A stretch of DNA of 64,000 nt from Amphiscolops sp. MND2022 (lineage: Eukaryota), in assembly GCA_964187785.1 (NCBI GenBank), contig OZ076409.1:26228001-26292000 (forward strand), read 5' to 3'. Shown piece after piece: positions 1 to 47,050 of this stretch. The position numbers and the translations under genes were made by a program. The notes beneath the pieces were generated by a model. The model was not told the origin of the DNA, did no database searches, and saw only the letters and a list, made by a program, of their open reading frames with translations. How positions within the stretch are numbered: the stretch's first letter is position 1; each line of letters begins with the position of its first letter.

Positions 1-1144
1 TCCAATTTAGCCTAACATCGGCCGGCAGTTTCGAAAGTGCACTGGTAAGATTGACGGTGGAGTGAATGTCATGGAGAAAATTTAATTGTGTGAAGGTATC
101 GACAAGAGAAGAGATGAAATTTGCATAGTTCGTGATGGAATTCGGATCATCAGTTGATGGTTGCCTGAATGTTTGGAGACGTTGAAGAAATGACATCACA
201 ATACGATCAGGTTTGCCGTATGTTGACTTCAATCTAGATAGTGCATGCTGGTACATCGCGGAATTACAACCATAACCGGCAATTAATGCTTTTGGTTCTC
301 CAGAGACAAGAGTTTGTAAGTGGATGATCTTTTCCGCTTGCGAAATTGCAGCGCTGTCGATGGTAGCGGCGGAAAAAAGGCCAAACCAATCTAACCAAGC
401 CAAGGGATCGCCCTGGAAAACAGGTGGTTGAATTTTTGGCAAGGTCAGTCGACGTTGCGGTGGCACAGTGTCTGTATTGTCATGAAGGGCGTTGGTCGTG
501 CTGATGGACGCTGCATCAATAGCATTTTCATGCGTAGATGTGTCGACCGATTGCGTAATACCGAAAGGATTAGTTTGAAGATTGTTTGACAATGGCATAT
601 TGGGCTCAAAAGTGGTTGATGAAAATGAAACGGCATTGGTTAATGGAGGTACAGCAGTAGAGTCGTCTCCGTGGGGATGATGCGAAGACGATGAAGAAGG
701 AAGGTCAGAAGTTGCTGCGGCCGGCGCCGGAGGATCGTTAGAGTTACTACCACTACAAGAGGACCTTTTGCTTCTAGCCACAGATACCTTGAAGCGACGA
801 ATGTCGAGTTTGATAGATGTCAATTTGTTGGCATGAGGTGCGAAGTCTGTGGTTGAGATATGAAGGGCTAAAGATTTCGTCAATCGAACAAGCTCAGCTT
901 CAGCAACTGTTAATTCCGACGTAACGGAACTAATATCATCAAAATCTGTGTAGTTAGTCAGCAAATCATTGCCAAAAGATAACAAACTTGCAACTTCTTC
1001 CTGCTGTAACAAAATGAGGCTGTGGATAGTGTTGATTTCAGAAGGCTCAGAGTCGACAGTTTGAGTGTCGGCCGAGACGTCAACATGGGCATCGTCACCG
1101 TTAGACGGCTCACGATTGCGTAAATTATAAGTTTTGGGAAGCAT
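1..1144 (-). CDS. BEL/Pao Gag (DUF1759-like), N-terminal part, open to the window edge
   Basis: Manual translation MLPKTYNLRNREPS...LPKIQPPVFQGDPLAWLDWFGLFSAATIDS...EKIIHLQTLVSGEPKALIAGY...YQHALSRLKSTYGKP. This matches the Pao gag core in element B (LPEWKLAQYNGDPLQWHEWIGQFRSAIDS). Confidence 0.85.
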   Translation of the reverse strand, partial: MLPKTYNLRNREPSNGDDAHVDVSADTQTVDSEPSEINTIHSLILLQQEEVASLLSFGNDLLTNYTDFDDISSVTSELTVAEAELVRLTKSLALHISTTDFAPHANKLTSIKLDIRRFKVSVARSKRSSCSGSNSNDPPAPAAATSDLPSSSSSHHPHGDDSTAVPPLTNAVSFSSTTFEPNMPLSNNLQTNPFGITQSVDTSTHENAIDAASISTTNALHDNTDTVPPQRRLTLPKIQPPVFQGDPLAWLDWFGLFSAATIDSAAISQAEKIIHLQTLVSGEPKALIAGYGCNSAMYQHALSRLKSTYGKPDRIVMSFLQRLQTFRQPSTDDPNSITNYANFISSLVDTFTQLNFLHDIHSTVNLTSALSKLPADVRLNW

Positions 1145-1291: not shown

Positions 1292-1876
1292 TTATTGATG
1301 AGCCTGGGAGGACAGCCTGTCTCGCTTGTTTTTGCGCTGTTTCTTCAGGAGTGAAACAAGGTTTTGTTGATGCTTGACTACAATGCGAAGTAAATGGGAA
1401 TCCAAGGCAAGCGAAGGGTGAACACTACTCAACGCACGGATGACAGAAGGAGTCCTTCGTTTTCGTTGAGACAACAATTTATTTTGAGCGTCTAAAATGA
1501 GGATTCCAGATGAAAAAAGTTCTTTCAGGATGTTTGGACTTCCACTCCGTTGAACGTAAACAATGGCGCGGATGCAATTTCGGAATTCAAAGAGCAGTTG
1601 AATCAACTCTTCAGGTGACAGGGATGTGTAATTGTTGCTCTGATGCTTCGAGAGACTGTTACTAATGACGTCGTGCCAAATGACTATGTTTTGTTTGCGT
1701 GCGAGTGGGCCACGACGAAGAAGATTTTGCAAAACTTTGAAACGATAATTCGAAGAAGTGTTGAAACTGAGTCCTCGTATTGCAAAGGATCTTTTGGACA
1801 GTGAATAACGAAAGGAATGAGGGATGGACGTTGACTTTAGGATATTATCGAGACAGCTGGCTCCGATGATAAACAT
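1292..1876 (-). CDS. Extra ORF (ORF0) of BEL element A, 194 aa, putative SGNH-fold protein
   Basis: Intact ATG-to-stop ORF between PBS and gag, homologous by eye to 36111-36707 (IIGAS, GLSFNT, QNL, IVIWHDVISNSLSKH, IRAIVYVQR, VHP). The fold assignment is inference. Confidence 0.75.
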   Translation of the reverse strand: MFIIGASCLDNILKSTSIPHSFRYSLSKRSFAIRGLSFNTSSNYRFKVLQNLLRRGPLARKQNIVIWHDVISNSLSKHQSNNYTSLSPEELIQLLFEFRNCIRAIVYVQRSGSPNILKELFSSGILILDAQNKLLSQRKRRTPSVIRALSSVHPSLALDSHLLRIVVKHQQNLVSLLKKQRKNKRDRLSSQAHQ

Positions 1877-2115
1877 AATGAAAGACGTAAAAGATGATAA
1901 TAACGCAACAAATGCGAAACATAACGAAACGAATGAAAATGTAGGTGAAACAAAAGTTTATACTCCTCACAGTTGTTCGAATATATCAAATAAAACAAAA
2001 GCGACGGATGAACAGGAGACGTAACGAAGATTGGAACAACTAGAAAGAAGAATCCCATAGACGAAACGAATTGCAACCAACGTGGTAACAGACACGAAGA
2101 ATGGGATCGACTTTA

Positions 2116-2129
2116 CACGTTGGGCGCCA
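2116..2129 (-). promoter_or_regulatory. Primer binding site, tRNA-Lys(CTT) type
   Basis: Minus strand TGGCGCCCAACGTG, 7 nt inside the LTR end. Confidence 0.8.
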
Positions 2130-2136: not shown

Positions 2137-2325
2137 TGTTACTGACCTCGCATAATGGGTGAATTCGTCATAGCAGTCGTGGGGACAGTGGCCATAAAAT
2201 GAATGGTCAGGAAATGCCCGGAAACACTGACTAAGATTAGTAAAAGGTTGAGACCAGTAAAATAACTGATATTATATAAAATATATTTATTATATAAGAA
2301 TAATCAGAAAAGAGGAGGGGTAACA
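2137..2325 (-). repeat. 5' LTR of BEL element A (~189 bp)
   Basis: TGTTAC...GTAACA terminal inverted repeats, AATAAA on the minus strand, adjacent PBS. The partner LTR lies outside the window. Confidence 0.65.
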
Positions 2326-3369
2326 AAGAGGGGACAGTTTCAAAATATATTTACCTGAGGAATTGGTTTCCTCTTTCTCTTTTCTTTTCTTGAGTTTCGT
2401 TTCTATATCTTGCAAAAACGCAAAGATTAATTTTTGAATAATTCCATTCAGGAGAACTTGCTATGAGCAATACGAATTAAGCAACAATCAAAAACTATTC
2501 AAAAGATTTCACGTCGAAATTCATCGATCAAAATGTTGAGTCACAACAATAGTCGAACTTTCGAAAATTTATCAAGCGTGCTTGTTTATCTCTTCAAGAA
2601 ATGAAATTTCCAGCTATCCCGTGATTCATTCGGGACAACAACCAGAGTGCACTTGAGGTCTTTCGCTTCAATTGAAACAGAAACCGAACAATTAATTTCA
2701 TTTTTTCTACCACAATTTCATCTTGGTTTTCGAAATCAAAAGCACATTTTGACCTTTGTTGGCTACTACATCCATTTGGATCCTCACTTGTAAAAGTTGT
2801 TGCTCCGTTGAGCTACATTTTGGTGGAGTCTTGATGGAGTTAATGATACAGCAGTATATTGGCTACTCACTTGAAGTGAAGAGAAAAAAAGTAAAAATTT
2901 GTTTTCATTCGTTAGAGGAGGACTCGTCAAAAATTCGATTACCCTTTCTGGTCTCAAACGGCTCCAATGTTGTTCACAGTTTTTCATGAGTGTCGTTTCG
3001 ACACAGAAGGGATATTCAAGCGAAACTTCATGATAAACAAAACGTTTTCTGCCGAAAATCTCACACTGCTGAAAAATATCCAAAATGGGTCCTCTTTAGT
3101 CTCATGCAGTTTTGTAGGTCAAGTAAAAAGATGTTAACTATTCACTAGGGTTACCATTTGGTTCCCCTGAATTGTCTTCTGCTCACAGTCGTGAAGTCAG
3201 TAATAAGGTGCTTGCCATCTGCCAAACAAGCAGCAAAAGTTTCACTCAAGAGTTTGGCACTTTTTCTCACGAAAACCGCCGACTCTATAAAATTTTGAAT
3301 ACCATACTCGGATATTGTTAGAATTGTTTCTGGTTTGTTTTAGAAGGTCACTAGATAAATGCTACAATT

Positions 3370-25105: not shown

Positions 25106-25607
25106 ACTATGCAAAACAAGTCGAGACCGGCCCTATTTGGCGCCATATCTCAGGCTCAAAAATAGCAAAAGGACGCCAAAATGTCAAAGTATCGGGGAAT
25201 TGAGAACCCTTTCATGAAAAAAATTGAAAAAACTCACAATGCCGAAAAAATTGAAAGGGGACCCTTTGGGATTTTTCAACATCCATCCTGTCACAAAACT
25301 CCAAAAAAATTGAATGGGGGACTCTTTGGGGACAATTTTTTGTCGGATAAAAAAAAGTCTCATAATGCCGAAAAACTTAAAAGTGGGACCCTTTAGGCTC
25401 GCTCGGTATTGTATGTTACGCGGAAAAATGAAAAACTTTCGATTCTGTTCGCTAGGCCAAAGGGTTCAATTCGACACCACACAATTTTATAGAACTTGTA
25501 GAATTATTTTGGTCATTTCAGGTGTTTCGAAAAAAAAATGAAAAAAAAAACTGACGAAAAGCCATGACTATACTATTACTATATTATTAAATAGTTTCAT
25601 ATTTGGA

Positions 25608-26453: not shown

Positions 26454-29096
26454 CTACAGAACATAACCAAAGAATTCTATATCTTGTGTTTCAACATTAG
26501 AAGTTTGTACAAAGTGAATAGACGCCAAACCTTTTCCAATTACCTCCTGAGTAAGAACTACGACATCATTTGTATCGCAGAAACCTGGCTCACCGAGGAG
26601 ATAGCAGAAAATGAATTATTTATCCCTCAGTATCAATGTTTTGTATCAAATCGCAAATCAACCCCGAAAACCACTTCTCATGGAGGTACTATGATAGGTA
26701 TCAAACGAACTATAAACTCAGAACAACTGTATTTTGACTACGAAGTGAATGGATCGGTTACAGCGTGTAATGCTACCCTAGGAAAGAAAAACACCCTCAT
26801 TTTGTACTGCTATTTTCCTCCTGAAAACAGCAAGTATGCGTATAATGAAGACCATTTGCAATCTTTCTTCAGGAATATTGGAATCTTACAAAAAAAGTTT
26901 AATGAAGTAATGATTTATGGCGATTTTAATTTTCCGACAATAAACTGGAAAAGTCTTTCATCTTCTATTCACCTAGAAAACAAATTCCTTGAACACCTGG
27001 AGTCACACGCACTACAACAGAAAGTAAATTTCCATACGGCTAGCTCTGGAATTTTGGATTTGTTTTTGGTGAGTGACAATGTTCAAGTAGTAAACGTCGT
27101 CAGCATCGAATATAGCAACATATCGAAACTGTCCAATCATTATCCTTTTGAAGTCCAATTCAGCGTAAAAATAAGCGACCTTCTACTAAGAAGCTGTGTC
27201 ACACAACAAATCTACAGTTTCTGCAGCGGAAATTATGGAGAGCTCTCAAAATATATCACTGAGAACAAATTCTTTAGTTACTGCTGGTCAAATCCAAACA
27301 AAATCCTAGAACTATGGTATGAATGGCTTGATTGTGCTTTAGAGGTGTATATTCCAAAGAGAACCATGCACAGATCATCATTACCACCCTGGATATCGAA
27401 AGAAACCTCGCATTTGATAAAATGTCTAAAAACGGCTAGGAAAAGATATGGAGAGTCTCATACGAAAGTTAAAGATTTAGCTTACCAAGTCGAAATCAAA
27501 GCAACAAACAAAAATTCAGATGTGAAAGTTATCAGCGATATCCTCTTCAGCGAAAAGGAAGTCATGACTATATGTAAAGATCTGAAAATAAATAAGAGTA
27601 AAGGTCCTGACGGACTACCTCCTTTGCTCTTCAAGAAAATCTGTCTTTCTATACCACACTCTCTATGCCAACTCTATCGAAAAATTTTACAAACGGGCAT
27701 TTTTCTGGATCTCTGGAAACAAGCTGTTGTTATTCCTATATTCAAAAAAGGTAGCAAGTCAGACGTCACAAATTACAGGCCAGTATCTCTATTGAGTATT
27801 CCTTCTAAAATATTCGAACATATTCTTTTCAAAAAATTATACGAGCACTGTGCCGAATACCTTCATGTGACTCAGTATGGTTTCAGAAAAAACCGCTCTC
27901 CCATTATTCAGTTGATTACGTTTCTCCAAAAAGTTTACAATGGAATTGAGTCTCAACAAGATATCGACATATTATGTACAGATTTCAGTAAATCTTTCGA
28001 CAGAGTCGACCATGGTATTTTACTACAAAAATTACATGATATTGGTGTACGTGGAAATCTATTCGAAGTTTTGAAATCTTACCTTTATGGTCGCTCGCAA
28101 AGAGTTAGGATAGCAAACGAGCTGTCAAAAGAGATCTCAGTAACAAGTGGCGTTCCCCAAGGCAGTATTCTCAGTCCACTGCTGTTCCTGATTTTCATCA
28201 ACGACCTGCCAGGAAAATGCGACCACATTATTCCTTTGTTATTCGCGGACGATGCCAAATTTTTAAGTGTTGGCTTTTCTCAAAATTTGGCACAAAAGGA
28301 CCTAGATGTACTACTCGAGTGGACTAAACTAAATAAATTACCCTTTAACATGGATAAATGCAACCATATGGAAATTGGTAAAAATCAAAAACAACTAAAA
28401 TATGGAGACGAACTAATACAGATGGTGTCAGTTCAATCTGACTTGGGTTTAACGATCTCAAATGATTTGAAATGGAATCTACACATAGACAAAGCCTGCT
28501 CGAAAGCTATCGGAGTCTTTCACATGATAAAACGCAACGTATCAAATCTCAATACGGAAGCAAAATTAAACCTATATAAATCTATGGTGGTGCCGGTCAT
28601 CTTATATGGGAGCCCATGTTACGGAATGAGCAAATATGTAATGTCTGAACTAGAAAATATCCAAAGAAGAGTCGTAAACTGGATTAAATTGGGAAATGAA
28701 TCTTACAAAGAAAAGCTATATTCTCTATCAATTCTACCCTTACCCATGTACGTCCAGATCAACAATCTTCTCCTACTTTCTAAAATGCTATCAGGTCGTT
28801 ACGCGTCTCCAATGTTAAAAATACCTATTTACTCAAGTTTCTCCCGCCATAATCTGTTTCAGCTGAAAAGACCGAACAGAAAGATACTGGAGGAAGATTT
28901 CTTCTTTCAAACATGCAGACTAGCAGACTCCCTAAAAATTGACCTACTTAACCAGATAGACTTAAAGAAGACGCTATTAAACTTGTTCTGGAGAAACTTC
29001 GAAAATTACGACGAAAGATACAAATGCTCGTGGAGACTAGCATGTGATTGTACGCCAAACAATTGCAGAAGCAAGACGTCAATAACAAACCTATAA
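26454..29096 (+). CDS. LINE ORF2 (APE endonuclease and reverse transcriptase); no ATG start, in frame with ORF1
   Basis: FNIRSL, IAETWL, GDFNFP, LDLFL and SNHYP (EN); KGPDG, YRPVSLL, GVPQGSILSPLLF and FADD (RT); C-terminal CDC..NC. The EN-RT linker looks shortened near 27500. Confidence 0.9.
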   Translation, partial: LQNITKEFYILCFNIRSLYKVNRRQTFSNYLLSKNYDIICIAETWLTEEIAENELFIPQYQCFVSNRKSTPKTTSHGGTMIGIKRTINSEQLYFDYEVNGSVTACNATLGKKNTLILYCYFPPENSKYAYNEDHLQSFFRNIGILQKKFNEVMIYGDFNFPTINWKSLSSSIHLENKFLEHLESHALQQKVNFHTASSGILDLFLVSDNVQVVNVVSIEYSNISKLSNHYPFEVQFSVKISDLLLRSCVTQQIYSFCSGNYGELSKYITENKFFSYCWSNPNKILELWYEWLDCALEVYIPKRTMHRSSLPPWISKETSHLIKCLKTARKRYGESHTKVKDLAYQVEIKATNKNSDVKVISDILFSEKEVMTICKDLKINKSKGPDGLPPLLFKKICLSIPHSLCQLYRKILQTGIFLDLWKQAVVIPIFKKGSKSDVTNYRPVSLLSIPSKIFEHILFKKLYEHCAEYLHVTQYGFRKNRSPIIQLITFLQKVYNGIESQQDIDILCTDFSKSFDRVDHGILLQKLHDIGVRGNLFEVLKSYLYGRSQRVRIANELSKEISVTSGVPQGSILSPLLFLIFINDLPGKCDHIIPLLFADDAKFLSVGFSQNLAQKDLDVLLEWTKLNKLPFNMDKCNHMEIGKNQKQLKYGDELIQMVSVQSDLGLTISNDLKWNLHIDKACSKAIGVFHMIKRNVSNLNTEAKLNLYKSMVVPVILYGSPCYGMSKYVMSELENIQRRVVNWIKLGNESYKEKLYSLSILPLPMYVQINNLLLLSKMLSGRYASPMLKIPIYSSFSRHNLFQLKRPNRKILEEDFFFQTCRLADSLKIDLLNQIDLKKTLLNLFWRNFENYDERYKCSWRLACDCTPNNCRSKTSITNL

Positions 29097-29146
29097 CTGA
29101 AGGGGGTGAACACCCCTTGTGTTTTCCAATAACACTAAAGCCCTAT

Positions 29147-29617
<471 letters not shown>

Positions 29618-32312
29618 ATACTTGGCTCTTTTCGAGAGAAACGCCGACTAAGAAACAATTAGCAAATATGGTAGATATAGGGCACAAATGGAAGTTGTAA
29701 CTGCAGAAGAGTTTCCAAGAAAAACCATTTTTTATGGTTACAAGTTTTATAGGCTAGTTATGCGATGGTTGCGCTGTTAGAAAGCCCGTCATTGCCAGCT
29801 TTACAGATTGAGGTGAAACTTAGGATGTCAATCCATTTCTGGAATCAAAATATATTCCTGATATTCCAATTAATTACATTGCATCCTTTTTGATTATAAA
29901 AAAATTGCTCTCGTTGATTTCACAGCGTATTCTCTATAAAACAATCATTGTTTTGAAGATGTTTTTTGCTTACTTTGGTTCCGAAAACATACGTGTCACT
30001 TGGAAATGGGAGATCATACACTAGGTTACCAAAAAGCAACAGACACTCAATTTCATTGATGAATAATTTTAAATCACAAAAAAACTTACATAAACAATTG
30101 AAACAAAAGTTCCAGGTACAAAACCTCAAATTTCGATCAAAATCACATGGGCACTTTTCTTTTGCAATAAAAGAAATTTTACAGAGTTTTACCGCAACTA
30201 ATTTTTGACTTTTGGTATTTGACAGCTGTTAGCAACGAAAAAATGTCTGAGACAGTCTTTACACCTTTGATTCATATCGCAAGCTTTAGAGTACAACATT
30301 TTTTTCTGAAAACGCCCTCCTTGAGATAAATAAATGAGAGTTTTCAAGTCTTACTATTTCGGCTATTCATTTTTTCCAGATATGATTTCCAGATAAAGAA
30401 CAATGAAAAGGCTACCGAAACGATTGAGTGATGTTTTTTCTCTGATCAGTGGTTTTTTAGAAAATACATAATCAAGTTTAGACAAGACAGGAGCGGCCCA
30501 AGTCGCCTCTCCGCTCAAGTTTCAAAAAAGTAAAGTTTTTTTTAATCTGCAAAAGGACACTATTGTTAAAATTACATCACTTTTACAGTGCCAAAAAAAC
30601 CCGGAGGGATACGCATAAGACTCGAAAACCACTTTTCTCCCAACTGGAAACATCAAAAAAATCCATCTTGCACAACCGAAAACCTTTCACAAAACGAACA
30701 AAAATGCCTCCGGTAAATTGCACAGTGCCGAAAAACCCAAGTAGTCCTCTATGCTCCCAAAACATTTGGTTTCTAGTAAAACTCGAGGCGCCTTCGATGT
30801 AGGCAAAATGAGAAAAAAATTGCATAGTACCGAAGAAACGCAGGTCTTTAAAAAATTGGATAGTATTGAAAAAATTATTGGTGGATGTGTATTGAGAAAA
30901 CGTATTATCAGACAAAAAATGAGAACTTTGAACAATATCATGGTGTCGAAAATGTGAAAGAGGGACCCTTGGCGATTTTTAAACAACCCGTTTGTTGTAA
31001 AACTTCAAAAAAAATGGTAGTCAACCTTTCGGAGACCACGAAGAAATTTTCTTTGAAAAAACCGAATTTTGAACAATCTAATAGTGCTGAAAAATCAGAA
31101 AGGGAAACCTTTATTCCGGGATTTTTTAACATCCATTCCGCTGTAAACTATTAAAAAAGTGAAAGCACAATAAACTTTGAAGACATTGAAAAGTTTTCAA
31201 ACAAAGTCTCCATGTGCCGGAAAAAAGTATTGGGGCAACTTTTCTGCTTTGGAATGTTTTTGTTTCTCATGTAAGAGGCTTTGCGTGCTAATTACAATGA
31301 TAAAAGTGCATATTGCACAAAAAGTGGACTGATTACATTGAATTGACAAAAAAACACTGTAAAGGTTGTGCTCTTCCTTCGAAAAAACTGACTAAAAGTA
31401 CCAGCAAAAAGAGATTTGAAACACTCTGTTTCATTTCGAAACACGACGCCCGCTGACCAAGAGGATTTTTTTTCTGTTCCAACTGTTCTAGGAACGACAT
31501 AATTCGGGTCTCAGTAGAACCCAATGCTCTGTGAAAGTGTGAAAAAAATTGAAGACAAGAAAGTTTTGACACTTCTTGATTCCTATTATTATTCGAATTT
31601 CGAAAGAAACACTTACGTCAAGAGCACACGAAATACTTTGATGTTTTTTTGTCGAAGTGTGTGCATACCTGTAAAGAACCTACCAAAATTTTGTAATATC
31701 GTACGAAAAAATAGTAAAAATTTCAAATTGCATAAACGTCCGCAATGTTTGCATCTTGGGTTATACTGCGGATATTTTTCAACTTAGAAAACTGCGAATG
31801 TTTCCTTCGAAAGTCCTACTGCATAGCTTGTTATTTCGGCCGGTGCCTAATAATTTTTACCTGGCAAAAAAGGTTAAAAACAATATAACCTTTTCGATGT
31901 TAGTTCTGTCCGATTTCTGTTTTGAACACGATCTTATAGCTAAATATTTCAATGCTGAGCCTGCTGATTTTTCTATTTTGAGAAAACTTTCAGAAACAGT
32001 GAGAAATTTTGAAGTAAATAGTCGAATTATAAAAAAAACGATAATAAATTTGAGGAACTTTATCCACTTTTGTACCAACGTCTAATTCAATGGATGTTCT
32101 AATTGGCAGTTTTTTTTAAAAAAATTTGAGGCCTATTTTAACTAAAATTACGGAGCCAAAAAATTCGTTCGAAGTAACGAAAATTGGAATGTTTTGGTTT
32201 TTTGACAGTTTCGCGGTCAAAAAAATATTTTCCAGAACGCCCAATGGATACAGGGTTAATTGGTCGTTGAGAGCCAATACCAATCCAATTAAAAAATTGC
32301 TCGACGCACGTA

Positions 32313-33072: not shown

Positions 33073-35048
33073 AGGAGCAAGAGCACAAACATAATGAAAA
33101 ACTTGACATTTTTGGATCTTCGATTGATAGTGTCTTTCTAATGTACTTGTCTATATATGAAATTAAATTCATTAGGAATTTTCAAAACCTAAAAATTACA
33201 AATTTATCCAATTTTGAACAAAAAATAACTAAAATTGTCCAAAACGTGAAACCTTTTATCGTTTAACATCCTTGGTGCATTTTTGGACACATTTTTCTAA
33301 AACAAACAGCAGGTATATCCGCAAAGAAGCGTATTGGATTGCAGCCAAATTCGTCATTAAATCTTTTTGAACCTAATCCCCGAAATCTCTGATGATACAC
33401 ACTTATTTCAAAGAAATGGTTGAATTTATGAAACTTTCAGACTTCAGACTTTTCTGAATTCTTTCAAACTTTCCGCACGAATTTGCATCGAACAAGCAAA
33501 CTCTACATAGCTGGTTCATCTTTTAAAAACTTTCATTTGATCCAACTCACGAAACCTTTCAAATTTGTCGTGAAGTATGCGCAAAAGTGAGAAAAAAAAT
33601 CTTCAGTTTTTGACTATTCTGAGGGTCATTTTATTTTGAAGCTTTTTTCTAACATGAAGCTGTTACTGACTTTCAAAGTACTACTCGTTTAAGCGGTTGT
33701 TTGCTGTTGGATGTTTGCCTTCTTCAATCAAGCGATGTTATACGAAAATTGAACCAATTTTCCCAATGAACATGAAAACTTTGGTGTTTCCACTTTCTTG
33801 GGTCATTCTGAGGTATTGTTTTACGTAGACAAATACATACCGCATGAAACTAAAATTACATAAGTTCAATTCTCTTGGTGAAACCTTTCATTTTGGGTAT
33901 AATTTTGGAACATGGTAATCTTAAAAAAAGTAGCTGATTTAAATATTTCCCACTCCATATGTTGGCTCTTTTCTGTTTTCCCCACCACCAAAGTTCTGGA
34001 AAGTCAAATGCAGTAAAAATTTCACACCAGCCTAATTAAGAGAAAAACCTTCTTTCATAACAGGACGTTAAGGCCTATTGGATAAGTGTTTTGTTAGAAC
34101 AAAACATTTTTCACACATTTAAACTGTAATTTTGATCTTATTCACTGTTTTTTTTGAGACTCAAAAGAGGAAGCTGTTAATTTACTACTCAAAAATGATA
34201 AGGAAAAATAGTGTGAACAAATTTTATATCTCGATTCCAAATCGTCACACTGGAAATTAATTAGAATTGAAAAACCAGCCGAGACCGGCCCAAGTCTGCG
34301 CCATATCCAAGGCTCAAAAATAGCAAAAGGACTTCCAAGTGTCAATTTACAGTACTCGAAAATCGAAAAACCAAAAAAGGTGGACCGAGTAACGGTCCGG
34401 GGCCCGCTAGCGCGAGCCCCTGGCGCGCTAAAAGGGGGACACTTCCGAAATTGTCAACATTTTTGTCGCAGTTGAAGGGGGGCCCTTTTGAGAAAAAAGC
34501 AATCTTTCGGAAAAAAGTCTCACAATGCCGAAAAACAGAAAGGGGGGACATTTCGGGATTTTTAAACACCCATTCTGTTGTAATATATCAAAGAAATTGA
34601 AGGGGGACCCTTTGGAGAGAAAAAAATTAGAAAAAAAGTCTCACAATGCCAAAAAACTGAAAGGGGGACCCTTTGAGGTTTTTCAACATCCATTCTGTCG
34701 CAAAACATCAAAAAACTGAAGGGGGAAAAATGTTTTATTTTCGGAAAAAATCTCAATGCCGAAAAAAACTGAAAGGGGGGACCCTTTGGGATTTTTCAAC
34801 ATCCATTCTGTCGCAAAGCAGCAAAAAATTGAAGGGGGGACCCTTTGACGAAAAAAAATTTCCGGAAAAAAAGTCTCGCAGTGCCGAACAAAAATTGGAA
34901 GGGGGGACCCTTTGGTCTCGCCGGGTATGGTATATTACGCGGGAAAGCTGGAAAAATCTTTTTGGTCCAGTTCGCTAGGCCAAATGGTGCAATTTGGTTC
35001 AAAAATATTTTGTAGAACTTTTAAGAACTATTTTGGGCAGTTCGTGTG

Positions 35049-35479
35049 TGTTGCGGCGCAATACAAACAAGGCGTGATTAAATTAAGCAAATAATAAGGC
35101 AGGTTGGCCGAATGGTTAGTGCGTTGGCTTTCTAACCATAAGATCGCAGGTTCAATTCCCGGTAACTGCAAATATTTGGGAAAAAATCCAAATATCCAAA
35201 ATATCTCTAGTTTTTTGCAAATATATCTCAAAATAACCTTGAAAACACTGCAAAAAGGTCTTGCTATCTTGTTATTTACCATTGTTTGTTATTGTTTGTA
35301 AATGTTATTGTTCATTTGTCTGCCAAAAGCAATATTCTGACCGTTTAACATACTCATTGTTGCCTCGATTTGTGATCGGATCCCATATGTATACGTTTGG
35401 CCCTTAATTCATTATTGAAATCTCTCCAATTGAACTCTAAATACGAAGTCTAGGTTACCGAGAATTTAGCCTTTTTACA
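35049..35479 (+). repeat. 5' LTR of element B
   Basis: Direct repeat of 43504-43934. Confidence 0.95.
35099..35170 (+). promoter_or_regulatory. tRNA-derived cassette (A and B boxes) inside the LTR; second copy at 43554-43625
   Basis: GCAGGTTGGCCGAATGGTTAGTGCGTTGGCTTTCTAACCATAAGATCGCAGGTTCAATTCCCGGTAACTGCA, 72 nt. A box TGGCCGAATGG, B box GGTTCAATTCC; stems imperfect. Confidence 0.7.
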
Positions 35480-35496
35480 TGGTGGCCATAGAGAGG
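35480..35496 (+). promoter_or_regulatory. Primer binding site (TGGTGGCC..., possibly tRNA-Ile type)
   Basis: TGG start immediately after the LTR CA; the tRNA identity is uncertain. Confidence 0.7.
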
Positions 35497-36110
35497 CAAC
35501 TTTTATTTTTCTGGGACAAAATCTATTAACTCGGACACAACCGAGAAGCTGCAGGAGTGCCTGGCAAAGTCTGGACTTTTCCCGGAAGCGTCAGAGAAAG
35601 TCCGTCACTGACCCAAAAGTATCCGAAACCGACCGGAAAGTTTCCCAAACCCACCCGAAAGTGTACGATAATCAGCCAGAAGTGCCCGAAAGTGTCAGAC
35701 TATTACCCAGAGGCTCTACCGAAAGCCGCCATCAGCCGGAACTGTCCACCCATCTGTCCGATCGTTGCCCCAACTACCCGAAGGTGCCCGACAACTTCCA
35801 GCAAACGCCGGTAACTACCCGAAAGTAATTTCCAACCACCCTTTGCCCCAACCACCGTCCATGGAGGTATTTTAGTATCAAGCGAAAATTTCATTTGAAG
35901 AAACTTTGATGTGTGCTTTATTTAGTCGATAGCAAGACCTAAAAAAGAAACAAACGAATTATCGAAAATTACCGTGATATGCAGTGAAAAAACGTGATTT
36001 ATTGTGAATTATCCTAATTTAATTGTAAAGTTAAGGTGAAATAGCGTGAACTATTGTGAACAACCGCAAAAAAACTGGAACTTTGCTAGAAAAAGAGCAA
36101 AAACAACTGA

Positions 36111-36707
36111 ATGGTTCTAATATTAGCTGCTAGTTCTTTGCATCATGCAATAGAAACTGTTACCCCCGAAAATCAAAACGCTCTAAAAGAAAAAGTTCAT
36201 TCCATACCGGGCCTGAGTTTGAACACTAAAGCAAAAAATCCTCGAAAAATTGTACAAAACCTGATTGAAAAAGTTTTCAAAGACGAAAAAGAACTGATTA
36301 TTTGGCACGACGTCATTAATAACAGTATCTGTAAACATAAAAGTAACTTTTATCGTGCCTTATCAGTAATTGACCTAGTTAATGTTCTGAAATCTTTTCA
36401 AAACAGAATCAGGGCTCCTGTGTACTGCCAACGGAATCGAACGCCTGACATTTTCTTGCAATTGAAGGAGACAAACATTCTTGTACTGAACCCTGAAAAA
36501 GATTTTACCTCGCTGCGTAAGCAAAAAGATCCCGAATATTTGCAAAGTTTGAAGGCGTTGCACCAGAGTCCTGACCTAGAATTGAAACATCTAAATCTAA
36601 TTTTGAAACATGAAAACGATCTTCACCAAATTACTGCCCGCAGTCACCCCAAACGTCCCTCTAAACGCGCCCGTAAGGCGATGAAAAACCCAGTCACTTG
36701 CTGCTGA
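36111..36707 (+). CDS. Extra ORF (ORF0) of BEL element B, 198 aa, putative SGNH-fold protein
   Basis: Intact ORF between PBS and gag, homologous to 1292-1876 (ILAAS, GLSLNT, LIIWHDVINNSICKH, IRAPVYCQR, LHQ); basic C-terminus. Confidence 0.75.
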   Translation: MVLILAASSLHHAIETVTPENQNALKEKVHSIPGLSLNTKAKNPRKIVQNLIEKVFKDEKELIIWHDVINNSICKHKSNFYRALSVIDLVNVLKSFQNRIRAPVYCQRNRTPDIFLQLKETNILVLNPEKDFTSLRKQKDPEYLQSLKALHQSPDLELKHLNLILKHENDLHQITARSHPKRPSKRARKAMKNPVTCC

Positions 36708-36952
36708 TAACTGACTCCCCTCTTCATCTCTGTGTTGTGGCCGCGTCCGGACTTCATTGTCTGGTTGACGCTGCAACCAGTAAAAGTTTCTTTTCTGTGT
36801 TGTGTCCGAGCTTCACTGCTCGGTTGATTCACAGAAAGAAATCCCTGCCCGTGAAAAAGCAACAGTGCATCCGTCCTTTTAATCGTCTGTACGTCGTACA
36901 GATCATCGTAATCGTCCTGTTTTAACCCAAACACAAAAAAACCAGAAGAATT

Positions 36953-39900
36953 ATGGCTGATTTACAAGAGAAAGTCCAGAAGTTGCACGAAAATCGATTG
37001 AAGGCGCAAACCGAACTAAACAGCTTGCAACAGAAGATCTCTGATTCCATTGCCAACGCAGACAGACGAGTAAAAGTTGAACGTCTCGTGAAAGAAGACG
37101 AAGATGCGATGATGAGAGCATTTAGCAAAAACGAACAAATTTTTCGGCTTGCATCAAAAACTACTAATGCTGAGGCACTCAAAGCGGACTTAGAACAGTG
37201 GTTGAAAGAGGTCACTGAGCAGAACGACGAAATTCTGAGAAAAGCCCGCGAGTATATTGATGCTTGCCCAGCAGCTGATGAAAAGTCACATTCTTCGGTC
37301 GGCACTGTTAATGAAAAGGCTTCGAAACGATCTTCGATATCAACGAAATCGAAAACATCAAGTCAGAAACAGAAAGAACTTGTTTTAGCAATGCAACGTC
37401 GGGAAGAACTGGCACGACAGAGTGAAAACGCGCTACGTTTAGCCAAGAAGAGACATGAGTTCGCACGGAAACGCTTAGAAGAAGAACAGGCTCTCCAACT
37501 GGAAGAAATGGCGGAAGAAAACCGGCGAAAACTTGCGGAAGCAAGAATTGCCGAATTGGAGTTGACTGAAAACCTTTCTGAAGCGCCTGATGAATTCCAC
37601 GAAACACTGTCTCGCATTAGCAAACACAGTAGACAAACCGCATCCCAGAGAGTGTCCGACTGGGTCAATGATGTTAATTCGGAACCGCCATAAGCCGTAA
37701 CTACTCAAGCCAACGCAGAAGCCGAATCTTCAAATCCGCCAGTTGCTTCAACAACACTAATAACAGAAGTTGTTCAAAGCGGCTATCCTAACCAACTCGC
37801 AGCGCTTGCATCTGGACTGAACACTTTCCCGCCTGAACAGCAGCTCAACGTTGCCGCTGTCAACTTTTCCATGCCAGTTATAACAAACAGCTCTCCTCCG
37901 TCACTGGCTGCGGCCAGTCATCCACCTTTTCGACACGTGCCGTCTGCAGCCGCCCCTACAACATCACCAACCGTGCCCCCCGTATCTCAGACCCCAAATT
38001 TGCCTTCGCAGACACAACAGCCTGCTATTCCGATTACAACACAGCCTCTGCTCACCATACGATCCAGCCATGCTGTTCCTAACTTGTCTGCTTGGACATT
38101 CCCGGCTTGAAACAGCCTTTCAATAACACAATATACTGGCCCGCCACCTACTAGAGGACAATTCACTCTTTCAGGTAGAGTCGCAGCACCGATCGTGACT
38201 ACCGCCAGTTCGGTTCCAGTTGTTCCAGTCCGAAGTGGAGGAACCACTTATTACTGCAACCCTCAAGCCGTTATGGTTCCTACAGTGACTGGACAGACAA
38301 TACAACCTGCTACAACATTAGTACCTGCTCCAACTTTCCAGAGTTTCCAACATCCAATCGTTCCACCACCAACGCCAACGACAGTAACGGTGAACGATCT
38401 TACTCAACTTTTGTCCGCTGCGAAGAAAGACCATCTTCCTGAGTGGAAACTGGCGCAATATAATGGAGATCCATTGCAATGGCATGAGTGGATAGGTCAG
38501 TTTAGGAGTGCCATTGACTCCGCACCACTTTCAAATGATGTGAAGCTGACGTATCTGAAAACACTCGTGACGGGCAAAACGAAGACAGCAATTGCGGAAT
38601 TTGCATACTGCGGAACTATGTACCAAGATGCACTGAAGACGCTAGAGCGGAAATTTGGGCAACCACAGGCAGTTGTGTCGGCCCATCTTGACAAACTGAA
38701 TAACTTCCCGCCATTAAAAATGCATAACAGCGATAATGTGATCGCATTTTCTGCAACAATTTCCGCTATGGTCTGCGTGTTCCGCTCTCTAAAATACGAA
38801 CACGACTTGTCAAGTGCAGCCTTATTGGGTCAAGCTGTGCACAAACTTCCTCCTAACATGAAGGAAGCTTGGTCTTTGCATACTCTGAAGAAAGATTGGA
38901 CCCGACCGACCCTTTTGGATTTCAACGACTGGTTGAAAGATAAAGCCGAAGCACATGAGAGAATGAAAGTGTCTTCAGCGAAACCGAAGGCTGACGAAAG
39001 TGCTCCTACTGTTACACGCACCAAGACTGGAGCAAAGGTGTTCGCCGCGGCTAGTTCTAATGCACCTTCAACTGGAACTTCAACCAAGACAAACCGAGTG
39101 CAATTAGCTTGCATTGCTTGCAAAGAAAATCATCCTTTATGGCGATGTCGCGTGTTTCTCAGTAAAACACCTACCGAAAGAGCAAAGGTAGTTGCCGAAA
39201 ACAAACTTTGCTTCTCGTGTTTCAAAGGAAACCACTCTTTCCGTCAATGTCCGCAACCACGCAAGTGCAATAAAGATGACTGCTCCAGTTCTCATAATAC
39301 TCTGTTACACGGTGCCGAACGAGTCTTCCAACCAAGAACCACTCCGAAAACGTCACGAAACCAAGTAACTAGTTCTTGTAGCTCCACAACACCAAACAGC
39401 CAAACGGGTGAAAGTTCCGGCGTGTGTTCGGTAACCGACATGAAAGGACTTCTCCAAATCACAGAAGTCGAAGTTCATATCGGCACTAATTCCGCAAAGG
39501 TGCTAGCTTTGTGTGACTCTGCTTGCAGTCACTCGTGGATTTCCAAAAAACTTGCAACAAAGCTCAACCTGAAAGGTTTACCAACCAAGTTAACAGTCCA
39601 TGGGATAAACTCACAACAGGTTGTTGACACTGAGATAGTTGAGCTCAAGTTGACGCCCGTTCATTCGGGTGGCTCTTGCTCTGCTTTCAATGTCAAACCT
39701 TATGTGAGAAAGACTTTGCACGTTGGAAATGATGTCATCGATGTGGACTCTCTGAAAACAAATTACCCTCACTTGGAGCCCATTGCTCTAAAGACATACA
39801 GTTACGGAGATGTCGAAATGATACTGGGTCAAGACGTGTTCCATTCAATCCGCCCGTTGGAGTCTTTTGAATCCGACCGAAAAAATTCTCCAATTGCCGT

Positions 39901-42900
39901 TCGAATACCGTTGGGTTGGGTTTTGAGTGGACCATTGCCTTCGACTTCAGGACTCGTTTCGACGTGCTTCAAATCTGTGATCCAAAGTGAGAGTGACTCC
40001 CAGTTGGCCGATCAACTTCGGAGTTGGTACGAAATGGAATCCTTTGCAGCGAAGAAACAAGTCGACCCTCGCTCAGCTGCCGATGCTAGAGCGTCGAAAA
40101 TTTTGCAAGACACGACATATCCTGACGGATGCCGATATCAAGTCGGTATGTTGTGGGCTGATGACGACAGTAGTCTTCCGAACAACTACTTCTCAGCACT
40201 AGTGCAACTGAAATCCCTTGAACGCCGACTCGAACGTACTCCCGAACTGAGAGCAAGCTACGCTCAGACGATAAAAGACGACTTCGACAAGGGATACATC
40301 GTTAAGGTCGACAAGTCCGACTGTTTCAAAGTTGAAAACCCTCGTGAGTGGTACCTACCGCATCACCCAGTGTTACACCCACACAAGCCTGGGAAAGTAC
40401 GTCGTGTACTCAATGGCGCAGCCAAATTCCACGGTAGTTCACTGAACAACGCTCTACTTACTGGTCCTGACTTGTTACAAACTTTGATTCACGTGCTAAT
40501 GCGCTTCCGACAACATCCTTACGCTGTCTCCGCTGATATAGAAGGAATGTTTTTGCAAGTTGGCGTGATTCATCAAGACCGACCGTCTCTGCGTTTTCTG
40601 TGGCGGGAGGACCCAGCAACAAACGTCGCTGTGTACCAGTACATACGCCACATTTTCGGTTCAAAGGATTCACCGACTTGTGCCAACTATGCGCTTCAAC
40701 GAACAGCACGTGATAACCGCAAAAAGTTCCCGGAAGCCGCGAAAAGTGTCGAAAACAATTTTTACATGGACGATTATCTCGAGTCGAGCGCGACTATTGA
40801 CGAAGCAACCAAGAAAGCTCAAGACCTTGTGAAAATGTTATCGAAAGGCGGTTTCACGTTAACCAAGTTTGTCAGTAACGTTCCCAACTTATCTAACCAC
40901 CTCGACCCGAAAATTGAACTTGATACCAAAACCGATGAGAAACTCTTGGCAGCCGAAGATGAAAATTCTCATGTCTTAGGCTTGAAATGGAACCACCGGT
41001 TTGACACATTAGTTGTCAGCCGCGGAACCAGTCCCGACTTGAACCGACCTGTAACACAACGCGTTGTATTAAGCCTTGTCTCGGCAGTGTACGACCCCAT
41101 TGGATTTGTCGCGCCATACACTGTAACAGCCCGGCTTTTGTTAAAAGACATTTGGCGCCTGAGCGGGCAACAATGGGACAATAACCTGCCCGACGAAATC
41201 TGTAGAAAATTCCTCGATTGGGCCGAAGAACTTCCCACTTTGAGTACAATAACAATTCCACGTTGTTACTTCCAAGGCAACACTGAATCTGTTGAGTTGC
41301 ACATATTTGGGGACAGCTCTCAAAATGCATTCTCTGCAGTTGCCTATCTCCGTGCGAAGGTGAGCAACAGGAAAGGTATGACAACCGAACTAACCTTTGT
41401 ATTCGGGAAAGCTCGCGTCTCTCCAATGAAAGCACTCACGATACCTAAGTTGGAGCTTCAAGCAGCTCTTCTCGCCGCCCGATTGAAAGATGAAGTTCAA
41501 AAGGCACTCATTCTAACTGTCGAGCGAACGTTAATGTGGACAGACAGCACTACTGTACTACAATGGCTCCACTCCATTGACAAACAACCCGTGTTCGTCG
41601 CCAATAGAGTTCCCGAGATACTTGAGCTGACGACAATCGACGAGTGGAACCACGTACCAACAGTCGACAACCCGGCCGACGCAGGCACCCGTGGCCTGTC
41701 AGCAAAAGCTCTTTTAGAGAGCTCATGGCTGAAAGGTCCTGCCTTCCTAAAGACTTCTGATTGGCCCTTCAAACCATCAGACGAAATTATGAAGTCAAAA
41801 TGGAAGAAACTCGACCCCGACAATGTACTTACTGAACCCAATTACCAAGAAACGACAGCAAATGCAGTCTTCAATGCCCTAACTCTTGAGTGGCAAAAGT
41901 ACAGCTCTTACGAGAAACTTTTGCGCATTTTGGCTTACATTTTGCGTCTTTTGCCGAAATTCTCTGGTAACCGAACAGAAACAGGTTCCATAACGGATCC
42001 TGCCGAACTCGAAGTTGCCGAGCAGAAACTTATCTACTTGGTACAATCCGAATCATTCCCTAATGAGAAGAAAGCAATGCTGAAATGTTTGCCGTTTTGT
42101 AAACCGTCAGGCATAAAAGATTTTACTCCCTTCATCGGTCCAAACGGTCTTATCCGCGCACAAGGTCGAACGAAACAAATCGAAGTTTCCAGTTTTGACA
42201 TCAAACATCCCATCTTGCTTGACAGTCGCCACCCTGCAGTTCGATTATTCCTTGAGCACCTACACGAGAAACACTGCCATCAAGGTGTAGAGTACCTGAG
42301 AGCCTTGATACAGCAGAAGTATGCCATTGTCGAATTGAGAACTGCCCTGCGAACGATACAATCCAGATGCGTAACTTAGCGCAAACGCAAAGCGGAAACT
42401 TTGACACCGATGATGGCTGATTTGCCAAAAGAACGCATTGCCTTTGCATCGCCACCGTTCACGAACACTGGATTAGATTACTTTGGTCCCTTCTACGTTT
42501 CAGTTAAACGCTCCACAGAGAAGCGGTGGGGATTTCTCTTCACGTGTTTGACTACCCGCGCTGTCCATTTTGAAGTTGTGCAGTCAATGGACACTAGTAG
42601 TTGCGTCATGGGAATTGAGAGATTTGTTTCCCGTCGGGGAAACCCTTCCGTTATCTGGTCGGACAACGGGACTAACTTTGTTGCGACTGAGAAAGAACTC
42701 CTTCAGAACGTTCTTAACTGGAATCAGCAAGCAATCACTGAGTCCATGGTCAAGAAAGGTATCAACTGGAAGTTCAATTCTCCTAGCGCCCCACACCATG
42801 GCGGTGTCTGGGAAAGACTAGTGAGAAGTTTCAAACACACTTTCTATGCGATACTTGGCAACAGACGTTTGACGGACGAAATCCTAACAACTGTTTTCTG

Positions 42901-43366
42901 TATAGTAGAGCAGAGCCTCAACGCTCGCCCGTTAATTCCAGCAAGCGCAGATGCCACTGATACGGATGCTTTGACACCCAACAACTTCCTGCTTGGAACC
43001 GCTGGCTCGTCTCTACCGTCTCACTCCAACAGTGATTTCGACCACCGCAAGCGATATGCACGCGCGCAAACATACTCTGACGCCATCTGGACCAGATGGC
43101 TGAAAGAGTACGTACCGACTTTGAATCGCCGCGCGAAGTGGTCCGCACAGTCTGACAAACAACTGAAGACTGGAGATCTCGTTTGGATCGTGGAAGCCAC
43201 AAGTCCGAGAGGCTACTACCCTCTCGCACGTATAGTCAAACTCCACTTTGGCAGCGATGCTGTCGCCCGCTCTGCTGAAGTTAGAACCACGTCTGGAAAC
43301 CTCGTCCGTCCAGTCGTGAAACTAGCCCCAGTGCGTCCTCTCCCTTATCCTACTGATGAATTGTAA
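36953..43366 (+). pseudogene. BEL/Pao gag-pol polyprotein with three in-frame nonsense codons (37691, 38108, 42377)
   Basis: The ORF-track pieces share one frame. DUF1759 gag, three zinc knuckles, protease LCDSAC, RT (YLPHHPV, ADIEGMFLQV, YMDD), Pao RNase H (FGDSS, WTDST, NPADAGTRG), integrase (GLDYFGP, SDNGTNF, GGVWERLV) and DUF5641-like C-terminus. Confidence 0.95.
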
Positions 43367-43503
43367 CCCGTAACATTTGTACTTTTTCTGTTTAACCACA
43401 TGTATCTTTGTTACACATGTATCATATAGTGTCGTTGTACCAAACCAAAAAAAAATTTTGTTTCGAATACGAAAACATTTCTCATCTTCTTGGGCCCGGA
43501 GGA

Positions 43504-43934
43504 TGTTGCGGCGCAATACAAACAAGGCGTGATTAAATTAAGCAAATAAAAAGGCAGGTTGGCGGAATGGTTAGTGCGTTGGCTTTCTAACCATAAGATC
43601 GCAGGTTCAATTCCCCGTAACTGCAAATATTTGGGAAAAAATCCAAATATCCAAAATATCTCTAATTTTTTGCAAATATATCTCAAAATAACCTTGAAAA
43701 CACTGCAAAAAGGTCTTGCTATCTTGTTATTTACCATTGTTTGTTATTGTTTGTAAATGTTATTGTTCATTTGTCTGCCAAAAGCAATATTCTGACCGTT
43801 TAACATACTCATTGTTGCCTCGATTTGTGATCGGATCCCATTTGTATACGTTTGGCCCTTAATTCATTATTGAAATCTCTCCAATTGAACTCTAAATACG
43901 AAGTCAAGGTTACCGAGAATTTAGCCTTTTTACA
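43504..43934 (+). repeat. 3' LTR of element B
   Basis: Direct repeat of 35049-35479, preceded by the PPT and followed by the TSD. Confidence 0.95.
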
Positions 43935-44528
43935 GTGTGGATTGAAAAAAAAGAAAAAAAGTCACTATAATAGTCGCGTTTCACTTCATGAAGCGCCGAC
44001 TAAAAATGGGTTTTTGAACAGAAAAGAGCCCATATGGAATATGGACGGACAATCCCAAAAAATATAGTTGTGTTTCAGATCAAAATCTGGAAGCAAAATT
44101 TGCACCTAGGACTTTTTTGTTTAAAGCATATCCCAAGAAAAAAGTGTCCATATAAAGTTTTAGCCTGTGAAATTTGCTGTTTTTAGCTTCTTGGTACAGA
44201 AGTGTATGATCTTGGAAATGCAAAGCATTTTGCACTTCTTCAAAAGTTTTAAACTTATCTCTATTCAAGAGAAGAGAAAATGAGGGATCGAAATTTGAAC
44301 TTTCCTTGGTTCCAGTATGTACTGTTTCCGCATAAGAAACCTAAAGTGCCATTGCGGTCGTAAACTAACAGCAAAAGATAATTTTTATAAGCGTTTTTGG
44401 TAACTGCAACTATATTAACCAGTCAAACAACAAAGTATAGTTGAGGAACTAACTGGGACTCCCTCCATTTAAGTTTAGTACTTCTCTGGCGCGTTGAACG
44501 ATGCTTTTGCTTCCATAGATCTAATTTG

Positions 44529-45271
44529 TCATTTGCCTTTATTCTCCTGTCGGTCTTTTTTAATATCAGCATCAGACTCGGCCACAGATTTCTCGGGAAC
44601 TGAGAGTTGAGCCGAAGACTCCGGACTCTGATCATGAACCAAGTTCTGGATTTCTTCAATCAGAGCTTCCAGAGCGGATTTATCGTCTTCTGTCAAAACA
44701 GGCTCTCTCGTGTCATATGGTGAATCTGTCAATGCCATAAAGTGCAAAACCGCTTCGTTTGTATGGTCGAAATCTTTAGCCCGCGCCATCGCTTGAAGTC
44801 TGCCAAAATCGCTTATAAGCTGATCGCAAAGCTGAACTTCTCCTCGTAAGATCTCTTTCTCCTTGTGAAGTTTTTCCACCAATGACTTCAAGTGACTGGA
44901 AGACTTATTACAAAGTTTTGACTGGTAGTCGATTTCAACTAATCTGTCCTCGAAATTGAAGTCGTCAAGTTTTTCTGCAAATTCCTTCTGTTTCATGAAC
45001 TCGATATAAACAACATCGTGATGTTTTCCTTTACCTCCCGTGTGGCCAGTTTTCCAGCATAATTTGCAGATGTCCAGATCGCAGGCATGACAGTGGAATA
45101 GAATTTCATATTGTGTGTGAATAGGGCAGTTGGGTCTTTTGCGTTTCTTTCGCTGCTTGCTTGGCCCAATTGTGTTTGGGTTCAGGTTCTGCCCGTCCGA
45201 TGTGCCTTGCTGTTTTTCCACATTCTGCTGAGGAGAACTTTGTCTTGCCGCTTGTTGCTGTTGCTGTGCAC
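44529..45271 (-). CDS. Terminal exon of a B-box zinc finger and coiled-coil (TRIM-like) protein
   Basis: Acceptor CTAACCAACTATAG|GT. Encodes AQQQQQ..., NLS-like KQRKKRKRP, B-box2 pattern CPIH...CHACDLDICKLC...H...HH, then helical sequence. The upstream exon was not identified. Confidence 0.75.
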
Positions 45272-47050
45272 CTATAGTTGGTTAGTTTTCGAACCCTTTT
45301 TGCTTCCCAGACTACCAAAAAATGGGAAACTTCTACAAACGTGCATTTAAAAAATTAATCTTAGTAATCAACCTCAGCCGAAAATAATTTTCGGACACTT
45401 TGGTGCTTTTCAATCATTATCTTAGGAATTGGTTGTTTCCCTTATCAGAAATGTTCGTGGGTTTTACTTTCATTCAACCGAGGAAAATCATTACTTCAAT
45501 GGAAGACGGTAACTATTCTAATTGTCTTAATGTTGCTCGTTATATGAAAATGGAAATTACAAAATCGTATCACAGATATAAGGTATATGTGATGAGATCA
45601 TTGTTTAAACGGCATAATAGAAAACCCACTTGTATCATCAAGCCAAAAAAGTATTATACTAAATGGAAAGTAATGGGAAGGAAATGGTAGAGTGAAGTTG
45701 CCTTGAGGGGTTTTGTATTTATCGTATGACCCCTTGTTTCGATCGTCACTCATGGTTTCTGAGGGTCATCCACATGCAGGGGCTATGTGTGCACCCCCGA
45801 GTCCCTACCCTCCGTAACTGAAGGCCGATTAGCGCCCCGCAAGACAGGGGAACACAACGGAGTTGGAACACAAGACTGCTGCAGTTGGTTGCTTTGAATT
45901 TACTCTTCGCTTGCGAAACATTTCAAGTTTCTAGTCATGGTATTTCTAATTGTTACGTCATTGGAATCAAACAAGATTCAAAAGCATGTCATTGAATTAG
46001 TATGTATCCAAAATTGAAATTTGTTCAAATCATTTCCATTCAAAGCAATTCATTTTGTTTGTACTATAGAATAAAATTCTAAAATGACGTTACTCGAATT
46101 TCATTGCAGTGTATTATTTATGTACTACTTAGCAAGTTCTCATTCATCAAGTCTTAAGTCATTGATAACTTTGAGAAGTTTCCGGAAGACGCCGCAACAA
46201 ATTCAAAAATTGCAAGTTTTTTGGCTTAGATTTTCTCTTGAAACTTTTGGCCAAAAATTACAAAATCGTTCATATTTGTGGCGTTCTTAATGAGAACCTT
46301 GCCAAGCATTTCAAAATCCAAAGTTTTCACGATTATGCAAGATCGAGAGGAAAACCCTTATGTCAAGAAACCCGAGAGGAAAACAGCTGAACTAAATCGA
46401 GATTTTTCGCTCTTATTGTTCATCGCAACGAATTTTCCCAAACTCCTAAATTATTGGAATTGTTTTTCAGACCTTTACGTAAAATGTTTTCACTCGCTGT
46501 TTATCCGAATTGAATTCATCTCCCACAATTTTCTACCGATGGGTATTTTCTACCGATTTTCATTCGTTTGAAATAAAAAGGCCGGGTAGGTCGAACTATT
46601 CGTTCTAGGTAGTTTGAACTGAATTGACGAAAAAAGTAACGAAAAAATTGACAACTACACATAATAGAAAAATCCGGATATAACGACACACATTTAAGTT
46701 CAAAGAACTAATTCCAGTTTCTTGTGACATAAAGGTCACAATCGTGATCCATAATAGGATACAATTACAACTTGGATCCAGGAATGTTTAGAATTCTGTA
46801 TCCACAGTTTATCTTCCAAGTCAGGATACCAGCGAAATCTGAAATGAGATAGTTGATAAACAGTTAGGTGAAGTTACTCATCATAGTTTACAATAGCACA
46901 CATCGAATTTAATAAACAAAGTGAAATCTCCAATCAAACGGTTAGATCCCTATTTCTGAAACCATTTCCAGTTTTGAATCACCAGAGATAACTTGGCTGC
47001 ATCTTTTCTCTGTCTTTTAACTTAGTCCTAAATCACGTGATCAAACCAAC

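Follow-up and report, generated by a model that had tools for sequence, protein, structure and literature searches.

We analyzed a 64,000-nucleotide stretch of DNA from Amphiscolops sp. MND2022 (contig OZ076409.1, positions 26,228,001 to 26,292,000; hereafter the window) that contains two BEL/Pao retrotransposons, elements A and B, each with a short open reading frame (ORF), termed ORF0, ahead of gag. ORF0 is intact, is under purifying selection, occupies the first position in BEL/Pao, Gypsy, and long interspersed nuclear element (LINE) carriers, co-occurs with CACTA-like genes, gives a tree in which the carrier classes are mixed, and avoids AUG codons. We interpret ORF0 as a selected front-end accessory gene with a host-directed role, a reading to which we assign a probability of about 0.4.

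With its long terminal repeats (LTRs), target-site duplication, primer-binding site (PBS), and Pao domains, element B represents a complete BEL/Pao element (Table 1). Its LTRs are identical at 424 of 430 aligned bases, its PBS motif recurs behind the LTR in most related loci, and its gag-pol encodes DUF1759, protease, reverse transcriptase (RT), Peptidase_A17, integrase, and DUF5641 domains in one frame interrupted by three stop codons. As a preliminary description of this DNA had stated, ORF0 of element B lies between the LTRs, separate from gag-pol and in its orientation, and element A holds a homologous ORF, which is oriented like the gag of that element. The two proteins are identical at 60 of 173 positions (35%; BLASTP, E 1e-34), and the alignment contains the shared blocks listed in that description. 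The order of element A is that of element B on the minus strand, with the LTR features recognized by way of copies L061 and L094 and the BEL/Pao domain set likewise present, and AUG is absent in every frame from the ORF0 start to the gag start. The PBS of element A differs from that of element B and is presumably of the tRNA-Lys type. No further ORF0 remnants were found within the window.

Structure predictions for both ORF0 proteins yielded a three-layer alpha/beta SGNH fold, and the structural matches to these models back the earlier fold call. The SGNH block spacing proposed at that time was borne out in part. The putative block I serine (S8, behind a strand at residues 3-6, in a G-A-S instead of a G-D-S motif) is kept in 42 of 43 family representatives and 93 of 103 distant database representatives, the block II glycine (G34, behind a strand at residues 29-31) in 37/43 and 92/105, and the block V histidine (H151) in 43/43 and 103/107. 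N71 is present in all 43 family representatives within a WHDxxNN motif whose register relative to block III GxN is not fixed, and the block V catalytic aspartate (D-x-x-H) is absent, positions 147-150 being variable with no conserved acid. According to the available part of one study, the acid is Asp in 23 of 30 SGNH structures and thus usual, not universal, and a main-chain oxygen replaces it in some active enzymes (PMC10792757). We predict from the models that ORF0 is an SGNH serine hydrolase with Ser8 and His151 as catalytic pair and without the block V Asp.

Profile and sequence searches gave no family assignment. Pfam returned no match over the cut-off for either window ORF0, none of 27 ORF0 members matched Lipase_GDSL, Lipase_GDSL_2, or OSK at E<=1, and there was no PDB sequence match at E<=10, no usable ESM Atlas match for query P0001, and no relative in viral contigs. 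For one of two queries, Atlas features scored 0.83 to clusters with 21-23% Lipase_GDSL_2, which serves as a lead only. TPR_ZFYVE26 matches in Pfam (13/27 members, best E 7e-6, below the cut-off) were dropped because they clash with the fold.

The conserved residues bear on the alternative that ORF0 is a non-catalytic, nucleic acid-binding SGNH protein that, like the OSK domain of Oskar, would shield element RNA from small-RNA silencing. ORF0 resembles OSK (PDB 5a4a) in its SGNH fold and basic character (median isoelectric point (pI) 10.7). OSK, however, is without the triad, as stated in the part of PMC10792757 available to us, whereas Ser and His are near-invariant in ORF0; the loss of Asp is met by the main-chain precedent described above; OSK ranked only 32nd and 33rd among the structural matches, behind active esterases; and a second SGNH family that replaces ORF0 mostly keeps its catalytic residues (see below). 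We consider this alternative improbable.

Searching the 1.07-Gb genome with the two ORF0s gave at least 3520 and 2915 first-look candidates, of which 150 per query were scored; these numbers are far beyond chance. A 27-sequence profile retrieved, at E<=0.001, 977 representatives of clusters formed at 50% identity, with informative names for 0 of the 20 clusters looked up. Because cluster P0273 reaches no more than 40% identity with the scored own-genome matches, and relatives in four metagenome loci (two of them before a LINE-type ORF1) show 34% identity, the family is present in other species. Pairwise Nei-Gojobori analysis of 26 ORF0 pairs revealed nonsynonymous-to-synonymous rate ratios (dN/dS) of 0.06-0.27 in 13 of the 15 measurable pairs; two near-identical pairs gave 0.65 and 2.07, and in 11 further pairs synonymous sites were saturated while the proportion of nonsynonymous differences (pN) was only 0.12-0.37. 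The protein is, as had been proposed, conserved under purifying selection. These values largely refute the possibility that the protein is irrelevant and that ORF0 hitchhikes as a 5' module or throttles the translation of gag/ORF1, and the putative catalytic residues are invariant at 30-45% identity. The many BEL families without ORF0 and the AUG avoidance described below, which is selection on RNA, would agree with such an explanation, but we regard it as very improbable.

With a gag-start query, ORF0 was found upstream in 28 of the best 30 loci of the element B lineage, and the same test for one LINE family gave 29/30. Among the loci L082-L092 of this lineage, the synonymous distances of ORF0, gag, and RT from a given pair differ strongly, which suggests recombination between subfamilies.

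We examined the surroundings of 79 ORF0 loci over 8.5-10 kb; the loci were picked for divergence and not at random. Carriers were classified by Pfam on representatives and by similarity for the remainder (loci L145 and L116 are incomplete), giving 39 BEL/Pao, 35 LINE, 4 CACTA-like, and 1 Gypsy. The PBS-to-gag position recurs in many BEL families, but the test proposed in the preliminary description, that ORF0 would always be found there, was not borne out: 40 of the 79 loci belong to LINE, CACTA-like, or Gypsy elements. LINE carriers have ORF0 ahead of a complete ORF1, which often contains a PHD domain and a knuckle, and ahead of an endonuclease-RT ORF2, and in the Gypsy carrier it begins 36 bases behind the LTR. 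The CACTA-like loci place ORF0 ahead of BEN and Transposase_21 genes in three unlinked regions; the Transposase_21 match is over the cut-off at L075 (E 6.3e-7) and under it at L112 (E 3.4e-4), and L130 and L111 were assigned by DNA similarity. Upstream tandem arrays are common to two of these loci, and no CACTA terminal inverted repeats enclosing ORF0 were found in 6.5 kb of upstream and 9.5 kb of downstream sequence in these rearranged regions. A host counterpart gene was not seen among the 79 loci. Among 38 BEL gag loci chosen irrespective of ORF0 (taking roughly one in four of the 150 best DUF1759 matches from 11185 candidates, with one branch overrepresented), 10 carried ORF0, in 4 of 9 gag clusters, and ORF0 is therefore optional for BEL elements.

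Some further features of these loci were noted. The CACTA-like element at L075, L130, L254, and L257 has a BEN-domain gene and an ORF that looks SET-like by eye but has no Pfam match, and rearrangement of the regions has left inverted and tandem copies. The elements at L081, L090, L093, L096, and L114 contain internal tandem duplications of 0.75-5 kb, which may be real or assembly artefacts.

The range of carriers also weighs on the proposal that ORF0, as a lipid esterase, brings the ribonucleoprotein (RNP) or particle of its own element to membranes, as put forward for zebrafish ZfL2-1. The predicted fold and the high pI are compatible with this role, a cis function would explain purifying selection, and leaky scanning (see below) would make ORF0 beside Gag/ORF1 from the same RNA. 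Against it, ORF0 also lies beside genes of CACTA-like DNA transposons, which have no RNA particle. Moreover, it stands alone with no coiled coil or RNA-recognition tether, and no longer fused form occurred in 7996 candidates, although this is weak evidence. Unlike the ORF1 esterases of CR1/L2/RTEX elements, ORF0 does not align to canonical transposon esterases, and no relationship at the sequence level was detected between it and the canonical LINE ORF1 esterases in its own genome (HHalign probability 5% against six local canonical esterases). The ZfL2-1 esterase structure was absent among the structural matches listed and may occur beyond them. We judge membrane targeting to be somewhat unlikely.

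An unrooted tree of 43 ORF0 rows (L133 labeled as LINE after its near-identical neighbor L134) requires 6 label changes for BEL and 8 for LINE. A LINE pair is the sister group of the CACTA-like ORF0s (99/96), and a metagenome LINE ORF0 is that of the Gypsy ORF0 (100/92). None of 200 bootstrap trees had a branch separating BEL from all other rows, and a single BEL clade was rejected (approximately unbiased (AU) test, p 9.5e-9), so that the notion of one BEL lineage did not hold even though the PBS-to-gag position did. The class labels are nevertheless more clustered than in shuffles, and comparison of ORF0 and RNase H trees within BEL revealed agreement at the tips and conflict deeper (L121 and L061). 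This combination points to vertical descent in the short term and repeated exchange in the long term; in this genome, ORF0 has likely been swapped among the BEL/Pao, LINE, Gypsy, and CACTA-like transposons.

Two BEL families carry a different, canonical SGNH ORF in the PBS-to-gag slot, and one of them shares a gag cluster with ORF0 carriers. This second family numbers at least 925 first-look candidates in the genome, is also the first ORF in LINEs and one Gypsy element, and lies inside the LTRs of two BEL families. Its members mostly retain Ser, GxN, and Asp-x-x-His and possess a Cys-rich C-terminal tail. Eight of these ORFs contain 15 ATG triplets versus 59 expected, with Met at 1 of 1577 codons and 14 versus 40 out-of-frame AUGs. 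Other canonical SGNH esterases were encountered in two sets of loci (L233-L240 and L244; L241, L242, L245, and L249-L252; element classes by eye), placed behind the integrase region of a Gypsy-like family and in ORF1 of LINE-like families.

AUG avoidance was analyzed in 38 retroelement ORF0s. ATG is their most depleted triplet (70 observed versus 292 expected), internal Met occurs at 4 of 7584 codons, and out-of-frame AUGs number 66 compared to a shuffle mean of 117, with 0 of 500 shuffles as low. A purine at -3 is present at 4/32 ORF0 starts versus 23/32 next-ORF starts (p 2.5e-6; six loci without a callable next-ORF start omitted). The ORFs downstream of ORF0 are not depleted in ATG (261 versus 233), and eleven LINE leaders hold 4 AUGs versus 31 expected. 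The SGNH fold does not force Met scarcity because canonical ORF1 esterase domains contain several Met. The simplest reading of this avoidance is that leaky scanning past a weak ORF0 start allows ORF0 and Gag/ORF1 to be made from one RNA, which we consider probable. Some observations weigh against it: element B has 4 AUGs within ORF0 and 3 in its leader, leaders of its lineage contain 3-13, and AUG is not depleted in two CACTA-like ORF0s, where separate transcripts would fit. A splice-acceptor motif before ORF0 was uncommon in BEL leaders (3/16). Internal trans-splicing between ORF0 and ORF1 was also considered and was not supported in the two groups covered: the leader was joined to ORF1 in 0/30 copies of one LINE family, and 0/30 loci of the element B lineage carry the spliced leader.

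The ORF0-bearing LINEs themselves begin with a spliced leader (25/30 copies in one family; other full-length examples in Table 1) that agrees with the leader reported for the acoel Symsagittifera roscoffensis in the portion of that preprint available (bioRxiv 10.1101/2022.08.27.505549), a match that makes an acoel host likely. ORF0 is therefore the first ORF of a processed RNA, and the transposition template of these LINEs is a trans-spliced RNA; the leader-headed copies point indirectly to ORF0 transcription. We found no description of leader-headed LINEs in the literature searched. The leader also heads sequences without ORF0 (L160, L119, L129, and L099), of which two or more are LINE-like. 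The spliced-leader RNA genes form a tandem array of a 904-bp unit alternating with 5S rRNA (G000:C1:16.23-16.43 Mb; L161-L172), with leader, GT donor, hairpins, and Sm-like site recognizable by eye.

For the host-directed accessory gene that we favor, the following scheme can be drawn. The predicted hydrolase would likely be translated first from the element RNA, while other ribosomes would scan past it to gag/ORF1; ORF0 would then likely act on a host molecule, rendering the cell more permissive and helping the element to multiply, and the basic tail would direct it to either the nucleus or nucleic acid. We tentatively suggest that its job is removal of an acyl group from a host target, such as a lipid or acylated defense factor, and not particle building, because the carriers replicate in three ways (particles, RNPs, and cut-and-paste) and because ORF0 is optional and replaceable by an unrelated SGNH protein. 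A role also needed by a DNA transposon cannot be particle assembly. More speculatively, and with the odds against it, either of two independent SGNH enzymes may have been repeatedly acquired and swapped, by two LTR superfamilies, several LINE families, and a DNA transposon, into a first-cistron slot adapted to leaky scanning, disarming a host anti-transposon defense via an acyl-group target; if true, this would be a cross-class transposon counter-defense enzyme in an animal and would hint at a previously unrecognized acylation-dependent step in transposon control.

Table 1. Features of elements A and B in the window, and loci of related elements elsewhere in the analysis
Feature	Position or locus	Strand	Remarks
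ORF0, element B	36111..36707	+	intact, 198 aa; predicted SGNH fold; basic tail
Target-site duplication, element B	35044-35048 and 43935-43939		5 bp
5' LTR, element B	35049..35479	+	TG..CA ends
PBS, element B	35480..35497	+	directly after 5' LTR
Leader, PBS to ORF0, element B	35498..36110	+	three AUGs: 35861, 35909, 35979
Spacer, ORF0 stop to gag start, element B	36708..36952	+	no AUG
BEL/Pao gag-pol, element B	36953..43366	+	three in-frame stops: 37691, 38108, 42377
Polypurine-tract position, element B	43486..43503	+	before 3' LTR
3' LTR, element B	43504..43934	+	
ORF0, element A	1292..1876	-	intact, 194 aa; predicted SGNH fold
5' LTR, element A	2137..2548	-	ends approximate, by eye against copies L061, L094
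PBS, element A	2112..2129	-	differs from that of element B
gag (DUF1759), element A	2..1144	-	leaves window; pol continues in L095
Leader-headed full-length LINEs, many families	L064, L067, L068, L073, L074, L113, L115, L117, L122, L126, L147, L330 and relatives		
Second SGNH family	L267, L272, L321, L328-L333		stand-alone first ORF

Elsewhere in the window, a LINE with ORF1 and an endonuclease-RT ORF2 but without ORF0 occupies 25542-29096 and is followed by a long 9-bp tandem array (~29100-29650), and a B-box zinc finger is encoded at 44529-45281 on the minus strand by an ORF that may be a host exon. A tRNA-like stretch was seen by eye at 35099-35171 within the LTR of element B and is repeated in the 3' LTR copy; ARAGORN and Rfam detected no significant tRNA or Rfam element in the LTR and leader.

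SGNH esterases recur in transposons, and the question of their role becomes testable in this genome with its thousands of candidate copies, two independent lineages, natural pairs of related families with and without the ORF, and carriers from both transposon classes. The AUG-poor design of the first position also indicates how an accessory gene can precede gag/ORF1 without blocking it. Apart from ORF0, the BEL/Pao elements are canonical in having LTRs, a PBS, and a single gag-pol with DUF1759, Peptidase_A17, and DUF5641, and the main text of a BEL/Pao survey, as far as available, names only env as an occasional extra and uses "esterase" and "upstream" 0 times (PMC3118150). We found no report of a BEL/Pao SGNH ORF or a stand-alone first-position SGNH ORF in the literature searched, which did not extend to Repbase, GyDB, subscription journals, or supplements, and none of an SGNH ORF shared by four types of element within a single genome, including in the available texts of PMC3118150 and PMC13524379. 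The novelty suggested at the outset is limited by GDSL/SGNH ORFs known in LTR elements: according to the sections available, ORF3 of the bdelloid rotifer element Vesta is a stand-alone SGNH ORF (PMC5408684), and Vesta, Athena, and Terminon share an accessory ORF among different retroelement classes (PMC5408684, PMC6431247). Vesta ORF3 lies behind pol in Juno/Vesta-type elements and has recognizable GDSL motifs (PMC5408684), whereas ORF0 precedes gag/ORF1 in BEL/Pao, LINE, Gypsy, and CACTA-like carriers, has no Pfam match, and avoids AUG. The ORF1 esterases of CR1/L2/RTEX and Penelope-like elements (ZfL2-1) are similar in that the SGNH domain is upstream of pol, has a basic surface, and is found in scattered clades; from what the accessible text states, that domain sits in a coiled-coil ORF1 and has the full Ser-His-Asp triad (PMC3905857), whereas ORF0 is a separate ORF before a complete ORF1/gag and is without the block V Asp. 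Texim of fish Helitrons likewise is an SGNH gene moved by a DNA transposon, described in the portion available as a captured host gene in a single transposon type (PMC4021074). SGNH proteins in transposons were thus already known; new here are their carriage by BEL/Pao elements, the stand-alone first position, and the sharing over four element types.
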